This document shows positions 12,054 through 17,701 of a stretch of DNA of 56,901 nucleotides, in pieces. The position numbers were made by a program, and so were the translations under genes. The notes below the pieces were generated by a model. The model ran no database searches. It saw only the letters and a program-made list of their open reading frames with translations, and was not told the DNA's origin. The DNA is from Pseudomonas phage PAKlein3. The stretch lies in the sequence record PP931173.1. The stretch is one strand, 5' to 3'. How positions within the stretch are numbered: the stretch's first letter is position 1; every line of letters starts with the position of its first letter.

Positions 12054-12911
12054 ATGTCAAGAAACTACGAGAAACTGTCCATCGAAGAGTTCGGTGCCCA
12101 CCTCCTGGGCACGAACGACCTCGACCCCATCTACGTGGCGCTGCGCAAGATGCAGCTGCCGGAAGCCCAACTGAACCGCTGGCTGCTCGCCTACTGGTGC
12201 CTGTACAACGGTGGCGAGGCGTCCTACCTCTCCGAGTTCGAGGGCCGTGAGTTCTTCGAGATGCTGAACCACGCCGCCGAGAACGTCCGCGAAGCGCCGA
12301 TCGGAGGCCGCTGGCCCCGTGGGGCTGAACGCCGCCACTGGCGCGGTGCCCAGGCCACCTCCAGCGTCGAGTACCTCATCAACCGCTACGACGAGCGCCC
12401 TGAAGACATGGCGACCTACTGCGCGGGCGGCCTGGGCGGGGAGACGACCTTCGCCGAAGTCACCAAGCGTGTTCAGGAGCACCGGCTGTTCGGCCCGTGG
12501 ATCGGCTTCAAGGTCGCGGACATGGTCGATCGCGTCATGGGCAAGCCCGTCTCGTTCGACAACGCCGCTGTCTTCATGTTCAAGGATCCGTTCAAGTCGG
12601 CCCTGATGCAGTACGACATGAACCCCAACATCCCGATGTACTCGGTGTCTCCGACGGACAACGAGAAGGTCATGCACGTGGCGGCTCACCTGATCGAGCA
12701 CTTCAAGGGCTTCCAGGCTCCGCCGCTGGGCGACCGCCCGGTGAACATCCAGGAGGTGGAGACCATCCTCTGCAAGTGGAAGTCCCACCAGAACGGCCAC
12801 TACCCTCTGTTCAAGGACATCATCGAGATCCGCGAAGGTGCCGAGCCTTGGGCCAAGGTGTCCAAGACCGCTGAAGCCTTCCTCGAGGCCATGCCGGAGG
12901 TGAAGCAATGA
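12054..12911 (+). CDS. hypothetical protein, first gene of the nucleotide/DNA-modification operon (candidate base-modification transferase, unassigned family)
   Basis: 285 aa. Start taken at the ATG after the terminator; the longer upstream ORF runs through the terminator hairpin. Translationally coupled to the FAD oxidoreductase. Confidence 0.35.
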
Positions 12912-13768
12912 CTGACGTGATCGTTGTCGGAGCTGGCCTGTTCGGCTCCATCGCTGCGAAGGCACTGGCCCAGGCGGGGCTGAGCGTGGTCGGGGTGGAC
13001 GACTCCCGCCCAGGTGCTGGCTCGATCCCTGCGGCCTGCTTGATGAAGCCGAGCTGGTTCTCCTCCATGGGCAAGGACAAGTTCGAACCCTCGCTGCAGC
13101 TGCTCGACCAGCTGTACGGGGTGGAGGATCTGTCGTTCAAGGCCGGTCTCCTCCGGGCGACCGTGCACTGGTGCGACCCGGCCCAGATCCTGGGCGACGA
13201 GCAGGTGCCTGTGTACCGTGAGAAGGTGACCGCCCTCACCCGCACCAGCTCCGGCTGGGCCGTCTCCCTGGAGGGCCGCGAGGCCGCCCTAGAGGCCCGC
13301 TACGTTGTGGTCGCCGCTGGCGTGTGGACCAGTGAGCTGGTGCGCTCGCAAGCCCTGGGAGGGCTGGTGGGCCGCGCTGGAGTGGCCTTCCGCTGGAAGG
13401 ACATGCAGCTGGGGGAGCCGTTCATCCGCCCTTGGGCACCCTACCGCCAGCTGGTCGGGTTCAACATCGCCCAGGACGAGGTCTGGGTCGGCGACGGCTC
13501 CGCAATCAAGCCGGACAACTGGAACCAGGCCCGCCAGGATGTCAGCTACTCCCGCTGCTCCCAGGCAATCGACCGCGCCGGGTACGGTGACCTGGAGTCC
13601 GGGCGAGCGAAGGCGCTCTACGGCATCCGCCCGTACATCGCCGGGGTGAAGCCTTGCCTGCTCGAGGAGGTAGAACCAGGCCTGTGGGCCTTGACCGGCG
13701 GGGCAAAGAACGGAACAATCTCTGCTGGCTGGGCAGCCAGCGAACTCGTGAGGAGGATCGAGAAATGA
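12908..13768 (+). CDS. FAD-dependent oxidoreductase (D-amino-acid/glycine oxidase-like)
   Basis: N-terminal Rossmann dinucleotide motif [23 protein letters not shown], with size and layout of DAO-family flavoenzymes. Confidence 0.6.
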
Positions 13769-14190
13769 CAGCAATAGTAAGACGCGCCAGCCTGGACGAG
13801 CACAAGGCAATCCTGCAGGTGGCCAAGCAATCGAAGTACACGAAGGACTTCTCGAACCAGGTGATGTTCAGCTCACCTGCGGCCTACGAGAAGGGCTGGA
13901 TCTGCGTGGCAGAGCTGGACGGAGAGATCCGGGGCTTCTACTGCATCCGCGAGAAGGTTCGCTCTCCCGAGACCGTCCTGTACTTCATCGGTGTCGACCA
14001 GGAGGCGAAGGGCCGTGGTCTCGGCAAGCAGCTGATCGAACACATCATGGCGAGCACGCGGCACCGCCGCCTGGCTCTGAACGTCAACAAGCAGAACGAA
14101 GAGGCGCAAGCCTTCTATCAACGCCTGGGCTTCCAGGTTGCCGGGGAGTCCCTCGGTGGCCAAGGTCTGGCACTATTCAAGGAGTGGTAA
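13765..14190 (+). CDS. GNAT-family N-acetyltransferase
   Basis: Acetyl-CoA binding motif Q/RxxGxG/A ([12 protein letters not shown]) and C-terminal AFYQRLGF. Start ATG overlaps the upstream stop (ATGA) after a GAGGAGG RBS. Confidence 0.6.
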
Positions 14191-14193
14191 GAA

Positions 14194-14763
14194 ATGGCGA
14201 AACAACGAGTAATCAACATCCGTGGGACTTCCGGTTCCGGTAAATCAACCCTGATCCGCCGCCTGGTGGAGCTGTACCCAGAGAAGGAGCCGGTGTTCGT
14301 GCCCAACCGCCGCCAGCCGCTCTTCTACAAGCTCCGTGGTGAAGGCTTGGCCCCGGTGTCCCTCCTGGGCCACTACGAGACAGCCTGCGGTGGCTGCGAC
14401 ACCATCCCTTCGATGGATCGCATTTACGAGCTGGCGCGCGAGCGCCTGGCTGAGGGCGACTCCGTCCTGTACGAGGGCTTGCTGATCTCCGCCGAGGTGA
14501 ATCGTGCGGTGGCACTGCACAACGACGGCTTCGACCTGACTGTGGTGCGCCTGGACACCCCGGTGGAACTCTGCATCGACAGCGTCAACCAGCGCCGCTG
14601 GGCGAAAGACCCTGAGAAGCCGCCTGTCAACCCCAAGAACACGGAGGCGAAGTTCAAGCAGACGCTGGCCTCCAGCAAGAAGCTGGCCGAGGCTGGGGTG
14701 AAGGTTGTCGAGGCCGACCGCGAGGAAGCCTACAACGTGATCAAGCAACTCCTGGAGGCATGA
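14194..14763 (+). CDS. P-loop nucleotide/polynucleotide kinase (candidate 5-hydroxymethyl-dU DNA kinase)
   Basis: Walker A GTSGSGKST at the N-terminus and a small (189 aa) kinase fold. Sits in an operon with a TS-family enzyme. Confidence 0.5.
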   Translation: MAKQRVINIRGTSGSGKSTLIRRLVELYPEKEPVFVPNRRQPLFYKLRGEGLAPVSLLGHYETACGGCDTIPSMDRIYELARERLAEGDSVLYEGLLISAEVNRAVALHNDGFDLTVVRLDTPVELCIDSVNQRRWAKDPEKPPVNPKNTEAKFKQTLASSKKLAEAGVKVVEADREEAYNVIKQLLEA

Positions 14764-16700: not shown

Positions 16701-16710
16701 GGAGGCGAAG

Positions 16711-17259
16711 ATGGGATCTACTACTGACAAAGTCGCCGAGCAGATCAACCGCCGCGTCTTGGCGGCCCGCGAGGGCGGCAACGTCCTCCGCTGCCACACG
16801 GTTCCGCACCACGGCCAGTACTCGGTCGGCAAGCACAGCTACGACGCCTTGAGCCTCCTGCTGCTGCTCCACCCGGAGCCGTCGATGAACCTGGTGAAGG
16901 CCGTGCTCTGGCACGACTGCGCCGAGCGGTTCGTGGGCGACATGCCCGCCCCGGCCAAGTGGCTCAACCAAGCCCTTGGCGAAGAGTACGAGAAGGCCGA
17001 ACGAGAAGCCCAGGAGGCCTCGGGCCTTGCCCTGCCTGAGCTCACGGAGGAAGAGCAGAACTGGCTGACCGCTGTCGACCGCGTTGAGCTCCTGCTCTGG
17101 GCGGAAGAGCAGTCGGCCCTGGGGAACCGCCACATCCAGGGGCTCATGACCGCCTCCTGGGGCTGGCTGGCCCAGAACGCCGCGAAGGTGCCGCAGGAGG
17201 TTCGTGACTTCGTCGAGGGCTTCGTGTGGCGTCGTCTTGACAACGATCCGAGGAACTGA
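16711..17259 (+). CDS. HD-domain phosphohydrolase (YfbR-like 5'-deoxynucleotidase type)
   Basis: His...His-Asp metal-binding pattern (CHTVPHH ... LWHDCAE). Confidence 0.55.
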   Translation: MGSTTDKVAEQINRRVLAAREGGNVLRCHTVPHHGQYSVGKHSYDALSLLLLLHPEPSMNLVKAVLWHDCAERFVGDMPAPAKWLNQALGEEYEKAEREAQEASGLALPELTEEEQNWLTAVDRVELLLWAEEQSALGNRHIQGLMTASWGWLAQNAAKVPQEVRDFVEGFVWRRLDNDPRN

Positions 17260-17260
17260 A

Positions 17261-17701
17261 ATGAAGGTGAACGACAAACAGATCGGCGGTGAACACTACC
17301 GCTCGAAAGTTCAGCACTGGGACTTCGTCTCGCTGAACGGAATCTCCTACGTCCTGGGCTGCGCCACGAAGTACGTGAGCCGCTGGCGCAAGAAGCACAA
17401 CTACCCGGAGCTGTTCCGCCAGGTGGCGGCCTGCTTCGGGGTGAAGCTGCCGACGCCGCAGGAAGACCTGCTGAAGAGCGTGCACTACATCGAGAAGGCC
17501 ATCGAGCTGCACAAGGCGGGCCGCCTGCCCGCGCCCGGCTCGCTGCTGCGCCTGCCGGTGTCGGTGGACGACTTCGCCAAGGCGAACAAGCTGACTCCGC
17601 AGGAGCGGGAGGTCATCTGGATCCTCACCTGCTGGGACGACCCAGACCAGCTCAGAACGGCAATTCTTCACATCGAAGAGATGGCGAAGGAAAGCAAGTG
17701 A
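17261..17701 (+). CDS. DUF3310-like phage protein
   Basis: N-terminal motif KQIGGEHY....VQHWDF is characteristic of that family. ATG sits right after the upstream stop. Confidence 0.4.
   Translation: MKVNDKQIGGEHYRSKVQHWDFVSLNGISYVLGCATKYVSRWRKKHNYPELFRQVAACFGVKLPTPQEDLLKSVHYIEKAIELHKAGRLPAPGSLLRLPVSVDDFAKANKLTPQEREVIWILTCWDDPDQLRTAILHIEEMAKESK

Follow-up and report, generated by a model that had tools for sequence, protein, structure and literature searches.

A probable PaMx11/Ab18-type thymidine hypermodification operon in Pseudomonas phage PAKlein3

The DNA studied here is the 56,901-nucleotide sequence of Pseudomonas phage PAKlein3 (PP931173.1), referred to below as the window, and the system in question is a block of eight plus-strand genes at 12054-17701. 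We conclude that this block is very probably a thymidine hypermodification operon of the type found in the phages PaMx11 and Ab18, with a two-phase route to 5-acetylaminomethyl-deoxyuridine (5-AcNmdU). All eight proteins have orthologs in PaMx11 (gp46-gp53), encoded in an identical order and with 85-95% amino-acid identity. An earlier interpretation of the same letters, here called the sequence-only reading, had proposed that a thymidylate synthase (TS)-family enzyme, a kinase, a glycine transferase, trimming by a flavin adenine dinucleotide (FAD) enzyme, and acetylation by a GNAT enzyme follow one another, and this proposal agrees with the gp46/gp47/gp48 pathway that has been worked out in vitro for PaMx11.

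The 5-AcNmdU pathway of PaMx11 in vitro

The system is not new: its genetics have been known since 2018, its biochemistry since 2021, and its structures since 2024. The idea in the sequence-only reading that its chemistry might be undescribed does not stand (PMC8989533, PMC11472151). In 2018 Lee et al. (PMC5889632) placed Ab18 and PaMx11 with the M6-like phages, described predicted FAD and acetyltransferase genes in them where M6 has genes for pyridoxal phosphate (PLP) and radical S-adenosylmethionine (SAM) enzymes, and predicted a different hypermodification. In later work (Lee et al., Nucleic Acids Research (NAR) 2021/22, PMC8989533), PaMx11 gp46 together with a 5-hydroxymethyl-deoxyuridine (5-hmdU) DNA kinase converted 5-hmdU DNA and glycine to Nα-glycinylthymidine (Nα-GlyT). 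The yellow FAD protein gp47 then converted the 315-u Nα-glycinylthymidine to a 257-u product assigned as 5-aminomethyl-dU (5-NmdU), and gp48 with acetyl-CoA converted the 257-u product to a 299-u product assigned as 5-acetylaminomethyl-dU, that is, 5-AcNmdU. The kinase step in vitro was supplied by M6 gp54 (PMC8989533).

Structures of gp46 (PUGT, 8z2m) and gp47 (NGTO, 8z2o) have been solved with DNA (Wen et al., NAR 2024, PMC11472151), and in the mechanism proposed for the two enzymes Cys247 attacks C6, phosphate leaves, glycine adds, and FAD oxidation yields 5-NmdU and glyoxylate (PMC11472151). In experiments, activation gave the monophosphate 5-phosphomethyl-dU (5-PmdU) and, as by-product, ADP; on this point the sequence-only reading, which had pyrophosphate as the leaving group, has to be corrected.

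The eight genes and their junctions

All eight genes were found where the sequence-only reading had placed them, each with a significant family match in Pfam or PHROG. Start codons were set by agreement with orthologs, and two were moved as a result, that of the GNAT gene to 13765 and that of the DUF3310 gene to 17261. The block is very tightly packed, although the description of stops overlapping starts holds at only three of the seven junctions, where ATGA overlaps occur (at 12908, 13765, and 14760); at the remaining four, 3, 3, 10, and 1 nt separate the genes. As judged from sequence, the block appears to contain the genes that characterize a PaMx11-type 5-AcNmdU cluster, namely an amino-acid:DNA transferase (AADT), an adjoining FAD lyase, a GNAT acetyltransferase, a kinase, and a TS-family gene.

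The transferase, the FAD enzyme, and the acetyltransferase

The first gene (12054-12911, plus strand) encodes a 285-aa AADT (aGPT-Pplase clade 2; PUGT) that matches the Pfam family ADDT, PF18724, at 3e-27 and 96 bits. The protein is 85% identical to PaMx11 gp46, which has 292 aa and differs from it by small indels, and it matches PDB entry 8z2m with an E value of 4e-169. When we compared it with the active-site residues published for gp46 (PMC11472151), all 12 of 12 were kept, including Cys240 (gp46 C247), E236/T237, and W149/K153. Clade 2 is characterized by a catalytic Cys with Glu/Thr metal ligands beside it and by a Trp/Lys pair that binds glycine, and the protein has all of them. It is the gp46 ortholog, a predicted glycine:DNA transferase that would turn 5-PmdU into Nα-glycinylthymidine.

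Directly downstream, with a start that overlaps the AADT stop in an ATGA, is the gene for a 286-aa predicted FAD-dependent Nα-glycinylthymidine oxidase/lyase, NGTO (12908-13768, plus strand; Pfam DAO/FAD, 7e-14). Its product is 90% identical to PaMx11 gp47 and matches PDB entry 8z2o with an E value of 1e-173, and all nine of the nine published gp47 pocket and DNA-binding residues are kept, so that 21 of the 21 published functional residues of gp46 and gp47 together are conserved in the window proteins. There is also weak NCBIfam similarity to MnmC1 and ThiO, the MnmC1 match lying far under the MnmC equivalog cut-off. This enzyme is the gp47 ortholog, and its products would be 5-aminomethyl-dU and glyoxylate.

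The third gene (13765-14190, plus strand) follows the FAD gene with another ATGA overlap and encodes a 141-aa GNAT N-acetyltransferase (Pfam Acetyltransf_1, 4e-16) that is 85% identical to PaMx11 gp48. It is the gp48 ortholog, predicted to convert 5-NmdU to 5-AcNmdU.

The P-loop kinase

The fourth gene (14194-14763, plus strand) encodes a 189-aa P-loop protein that we assign as a 5-hmdU DNA kinase (5-HMUDK). It matches Pfam AAA_33, with a weak match to HMUDK_HMUD1 that is below threshold, carries the Walker A sequence GTSGSGKS, and is 87% identical to PaMx11 gp49. A PDB sequence search gave no informative match. In a tblastn comparison it shares 31% identity (E 9e-8) with PhiW-14 gp37, for which 5-hmdU DNA kinase activity has been demonstrated. 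The protein is the gp49 ortholog and the P-loop kinase expected in a PaMx11-type cluster, predicted to convert 5-hmdU in DNA to 5-PmdU.

The same tblastn search of the phage collection at E<=1e-5 found 29 records, including those with the PhiW-14 gp37, Rhizobium, Rhodoferax, and Pam3 phage kinases, and no M6/YuA record was among the 29. Because the M6/YuA kinases are unmatched, yet the neighbouring clade-1 gene does match its YuA/M6-type counterpart (~36%), the PaMx11/Ab18-type and M6/YuA-type kinases may belong to different P-loop lineages. In PHROG 800 and in RefSeq records NC_028770, NC_026594, NC_042115, NC_052965, and NC_013697, the kinase is labelled 'terminase small subunit', a label at odds with the kinase function that PMC8989533 gives it.

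The nucleotide-pool genes

The TS-family gene (15654-16700, plus strand) encodes a 348-aa protein that matches Pfam Thymidylat_synt at 6e-26 and is 91% identical to PaMx11 gp51. Its nearest solved structure is the CMP 5-hydroxymethylase MilA (5b6d). All seven NCBIfam TS equivalog models scored it far below their cut-offs, the best at 92 bits against that model's 174.55. In a residue comparison with E. coli ThyA, the window protein keeps Cys152 as the nucleophile, the arginines that bind phosphate, and Asn184, which specifies uracil, and it has Met89 for TS Trp80 and Asn153 for His147. The equivalog score and the Trp80/His147 hydride-transfer environment of a canonical ThyA are thus both lacking, and we rejected a plain thymidylate synthase on the NCBIfam cut-offs and these two replacements. 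Since the TS cut-offs are failed, Trp80 and His147 are replaced, and MilA is the nearest structure, the protein fits a predicted dUMP 5-hydroxymethyltransferase.

These results also bear on whether the block could serve ordinary nucleotide metabolism without any hypermodification, in which case its products would be a plain TS, a dNMP kinase, a nucleotidase, and a housekeeping acetyltransferase and oxidase. The RefSeq labels carried by relatives ('thymidylate synthase', 'terminase small subunit', and 'hypothetical protein') would agree with that explanation, but the curated Pfam matches to ADDT and HMUDK_hel argue against it, as do the near-identity to biochemically and structurally characterised DNA-modifying enzymes and a TS homolog that is under every NCBIfam TS cut-off with a hydroxymethylase as its nearest solved relative. 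The in vitro reconstitution published with 85-90% identical orthologs effectively refutes it, and we consider it extremely improbable.

The seventh gene (16711-17259, plus strand) encodes a 182-aa HD-domain, YfbR-like 5'-deoxynucleotidase (Pfam YfbR-like, 3e-9; PDB 2paq, YfbR, 6e-5; NCBIfam 5'-deoxynucleotidase match below cut-off) that is predicted to shape the dNMP pool. It is 85% identical to PaMx11 gp52, with a 14-residue internal deletion relative to gp52. The HD proteins differ in length, with 182 aa in the window, 198 aa in PaMx11, and 196 aa in Ab18, and the HD motif WHDCAE is kept.

The last gene (17261-17701, plus strand) encodes a 146-aa DUF3310 protein that is 95% identical to PaMx11 gp53. 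Its Pfam DUF3310 match (2.5e-4) is just under the Pfam cut-off; it also matches PHROG 5839 at 3.5e-54 and PHROG 236, 'nucleotide kinase', at 1.6e-9, and a PDB sequence search gave no informative match. DUF3310 is a domain of the T7 gp1.7 nucleotide kinase (PMC10700055), and the window protein is a candidate T7 gp1.7-like nucleotide kinase. Roles of the HD protein, the MazG-like enzyme, and the dCMP deaminase in biasing the nucleotide pool are plausible, since a dTTPase/dUTPase and a dCMP deaminase are among the genes that were chosen for E. coli co-expression of a related pathway.

The predicted two-phase route

From family membership, the first phase would take place before replication. The dCMP deaminase would supply dUMP, which the TS-family enzyme (15654-16700) would convert to 5-hydroxymethyl-dUMP, and the DUF3310 protein, the HD nucleotidase, and the MazG-like enzyme would favour 5-hmdUTP over dTTP. 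The phage family-A polymerase would consequently insert 5-hmdU.

The second phase would take place after replication, on the DNA, where the P-loop kinase would form 5-phosphomethyl-dU. As for the PaMx11 orthologs in vitro, the AADT cysteine would then attack C6, expelling the phosphate, and the α-amine of free glycine would be added to give Nα-glycinylthymidine. The FAD enzyme would oxidise the N-Cα bond to leave 5-aminomethyl-dU and glyoxylate, and the GNAT enzyme with acetyl-CoA would complete the route to 5-acetylaminomethyl-dU, both as described in vitro for the respective PaMx11 ortholog. Phage DNA modified in this way would be expected to withstand the restriction endonucleases of the host. 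Two preprints describe restriction of Ab18 by a glycosylase and by nucleases reported to act on hypermodified phages, which lends the hypermodification indirect support, and one of the two states that Ab18 carries 5-AcNmdU, citing only in vitro work.

Several points weigh against this interpretation. The other of these preprints, from 2025, still describes the thymine hypermodification of Ab18 as 'predicted', and in the literature searched we found no report of 5-AcNmdU in virion DNA of PaMx11 or of any Abidjanvirus. Lee et al. had no access to PaMx11 and made no comparison of 5-AcNmdU with its native DNA (PMC8989533), and while a table credits PaMx11 gp49 with kinase activity, it was M6 gp54 that served as the kinase in the reconstitution. 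For the hydroxymethylase, the HD protein, the DUF3310 protein, and the MazG-like enzyme, functions are predicted from family membership only, and the block contains a clade-1 paralog with no assigned activity.

The clade-1 paralog and the end product in vivo

This paralog is the product of the fifth gene (14760-15650, plus strand), a 296-aa protein of aGPT-Pplase clade 1 with an HhH-glycosylase-like fold that matches Pfam HMUDK_hel, PF18723, at 1e-39. It is 87% identical to PaMx11 gp50, its M6 ortholog is gp55, and a PDB sequence search gave no match. The sequence-only reading had called both this protein and the 12054 protein unknown, when both belong to curated Pfam families (ADDT PF18724 and HMUDK_hel PF18723), and it had put both forward as transferase candidates. 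That suggestion holds for the 12054 protein, which is the AADT. It fails for the 14760 protein, which belongs to clade 1 and whose M6 ortholog gp55 is dispensable for glycinylation.

The 14760 protein lacks the marks of an AADT, which are a match to Pfam ADDT clade 2 and the glycine/amine-binding Trp and Lys. Both BLASTP and hhalign align the AADT sequence 'EVETILC' to the clade-1 sequence 'EVEHTLC' and the clade-1 sequence 'GDFMAYEVVTD' to a second AADT segment. When the AADT and clade-1 alignments were compared with hhalign, the probability was 11% and the E value 0.0026, which as profile evidence for paralogy is weak if taken alone, and the case for paralogy comes from the fold match together with the consistent motif alignment. 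Residues E266, H267, C270, F179, and E183 are invariant in 30 clade-1 homologs, and the clade-1 pocket has Phe/Glu in place of the AADT Trp/Lys, giving a charge-reversed acceptor pocket. The paralog, which has a gp46-like fold, thus retains a candidate nucleophile and acid, in a motif aligned to the metal-ligand and nucleophile positions of the AADT, without the glycine-binding Trp/Lys pair. By tblastn, clade-1 homologs were found in M6-like, ViI-like, PhiW-14, Bacillus, and Acinetobacter SH-Ab 15599 phages.

No function assigned to aGPT-Pplase clade 1 or HMUDK_hel was found in the literature searched, nor was any enzyme other than the AADTs found there to act on 5-PmdU. It is possible, if somewhat doubtful, that the clade-1 paralog is a catalytically active DNA-base enzyme rather than an inert helper, one that acts on 5-PmdU with another acceptor or else serves as a base-flipping subunit of the kinase. 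One possibility would be that, where hypermodification does not occur, it resolves the exocyclic methylene so that canonical thymidine is formed. Only part of the thymidines are modified in these phages, and a resolving step for the remaining positions is suggested for this reason. The literature searched assigns no enzyme to such a resolving step or to a base-flipping kinase subunit.

The paralog also matters to the question of whether the end product in vivo is the one made in vitro. If it were not, 5-NmdU or Nα-GlyT might persist, or a further derivative might be formed by the clade-1 protein or by another phage or host enzyme. The clade-1 paralog is kept in every thymidine-hypermodifying phage group, its invariant Glu-His-x-x-Cys motif aligns with the AADT catalytic motif, and the literature searched reports neither an activity for it nor an analysis of native virion DNA, all of which would leave room for a different product. 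Against this, the gp47 and then gp48 reactions proceed cleanly in vitro, and the translational coupling of the genes follows the same order. M6 gp55, the clade-1 ortholog, was omitted from lysate reactions without loss of glycinylation, and the set of five genes assembled for E. coli co-expression of a related pathway does not include the clade-1 gene. We therefore regard a different end product in vivo as unlikely and retain 5-AcNmdU as the predicted product of the operon.

The role of the clade-1 paralog, which occurs in every known thymidine-hypermodifying phage group, is a gap of the whole field and not particular to this window. It is one of two gaps in a well-studied system, the second being direct chemical evidence that the virion DNA of an Abidjanvirus carries 5-AcNmdU. 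The window itself adds one nearly identical genome to the published system and has little discovery value; the first-stage reader was nonetheless able to rebuild a non-trivial DNA-modification pathway from raw sequence.

Comparison with the M6-type pathway and with MnmC1

The 5-NedU pathway of phages M6, YuA, and AN14 has the same scaffold as the window, comprising an AADT, two tailoring genes, a kinase, a clade-1 protein, a TS-like enzyme, a phosphohydrolase, and a DNA polymerase, and Nα-GlyT is an intermediate common to both. The difference lies in the tailoring genes, which encode a PLP decarboxylase and a radical-SAM isomerase in the M6-type phages, leading to 5-(2-aminoethyl)-dU, whereas the window has the FAD lyase and GNAT enzyme. 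The cluster of the M6-type phage AN14 is syntenic with that of the window, with the two tailoring genes swapped like a cassette, but the M6-type clade-1 protein is only ~36% identical to that of the window.

A parallel for the FAD step comes from tRNA, where MnmC1, the FAD domain of MnmC, converts cmnm5U to nm5U by the same chemistry on RNA, the FAD-dependent oxidative cleavage of a glycine adduct on a C5-methyl uracil to aminomethyl (PMC8989533). MnmC1 acts on RNA and its product is then methylated, whereas the substrate of the window enzyme would be double-stranded DNA and its product would then be acetylated.

Genome context and relatives

When the block was compared with phage records by megablast, 16 Pseudomonas phage records matched. 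Over the whole block the nucleotide identity is 96.5-97.3% to Ab18, Ab19, Ab20, ZC01, phiW8-1, and PA_LZ03, 91.5% to Lucjan, and 88% to PaMx11, and the first 25 kb of the window shows the same identity pattern. From these identities we assign the window to Abidjanvirus (Mesyanzhinovviridae), as the genome of a Pseudomonas aeruginosa siphophage like Ab18, Ab19, and ZC01. It is probably a complete genome because 56,901 bp is about one genome length for Abidjanvirus. Relative to the records of Ab18, Ab19, Ab20, and ZC01 the window is circularly permuted, with position 1 of the Ab18, Ab19, and Ab20 records at about 3160 of the window and that of the ZC01 record at about 3302, whereas phiW8-1, PA_LZ03, and PaMx11 are co-linear with the window from a different origin. 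The G+C content of the window is 62-66%.

The accessory genes that the sequence-only reading had named outside the block, two ribonucleotide reductase (RNR) subunits, a dCMP deaminase, and a MazG-like enzyme, agree with Pfam and PHROG. The RNR small and large subunits are encoded at 8516-9577 and 9558-11264. The dCMP deaminase, which would supply dUMP, is encoded at 20160-20696 on the plus strand (Pfam dCMP_cyt_deam_1, 3e-20; PHROG 174, 4e-53), and the MazG-like nucleotide pyrophosphohydrolase, a candidate dTTPase/dUTPase, at 24570-25256 on the plus strand (Pfam PRA-PH, 6e-9; PHROG 671, 8e-35). The family-A DNA polymerase gene at 18220-20163 has a GTG start. In PaMx11, as in the window, the RNR genes are upstream of the operon and the polymerase and dCMP deaminase genes are downstream.

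Between the RNR genes and the operon is a plus-strand gene for a 161-aa DUF3489 protein (11515-12000), the ortholog of PaMx11 gp45 with 84% identity. It is separated from the operon by a GC-rich, terminator-like hairpin followed by a T-run at 12010-12027 on the plus strand (7-bp stem, tail TCTTTTCC; RNA fold -19.8 kcal/mol, z -2.2). A second GC-rich hairpin closes the operon at 17713-17732 on the plus strand (RNA fold -19.7 kcal/mol, z -3.2), at the same position as 'terminator_4' in the PaMx11 record. No promoter that clearly drives the operon was found, the sigma-70-like matches at 11328 and 13691 being at chance level. Minus-strand open reading frames over the block, including one of 700 aa at 14730-16832, were considered as real antisense genes and rejected as GC-rich shadow frames, as they have no Pfam or other family match.

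The gene between the operon and the polymerase (17759-18223, plus strand, 154 aa) has a stop that overlaps the GTG start of the polymerase gene. Its protein is unrelated to PaMx11 gp54 and matches nothing in Pfam or PHROG, and in Ab18, Ab19, Ab20, ZC01, phiW8-1, and PA_LZ03 the gene is replaced. A sensitive blastn search of 50,697 phage records found DNA matches only to the first 55 nt of the query, a part that lies in the preceding intergenic spacer. Only two homologs of the protein were found among 5.8 billion clusters, one 100% identical (Pseudomonas phage PAKlein3, UniRef) and one 62% identical, which occupies the same slot on a farmland-soil contig (L003 1989-2453). The position between the modification operon and the polymerase looks like a replaceable slot for accessory genes.

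Farther downstream, a plus-strand gene at 21400-23775 encodes a 791-aa protein in which no integrase domain was found; it has a RepB-type primase domain and a DUF5906 domain and is primase/helicase-like. In the relatives PA_LZ03, Lucjan, and Ab18 (LN610577), 'integrase' or 'putative integrase' stands among the feature names under the 25-kb match, and RefSeq has 'DNA primase'.

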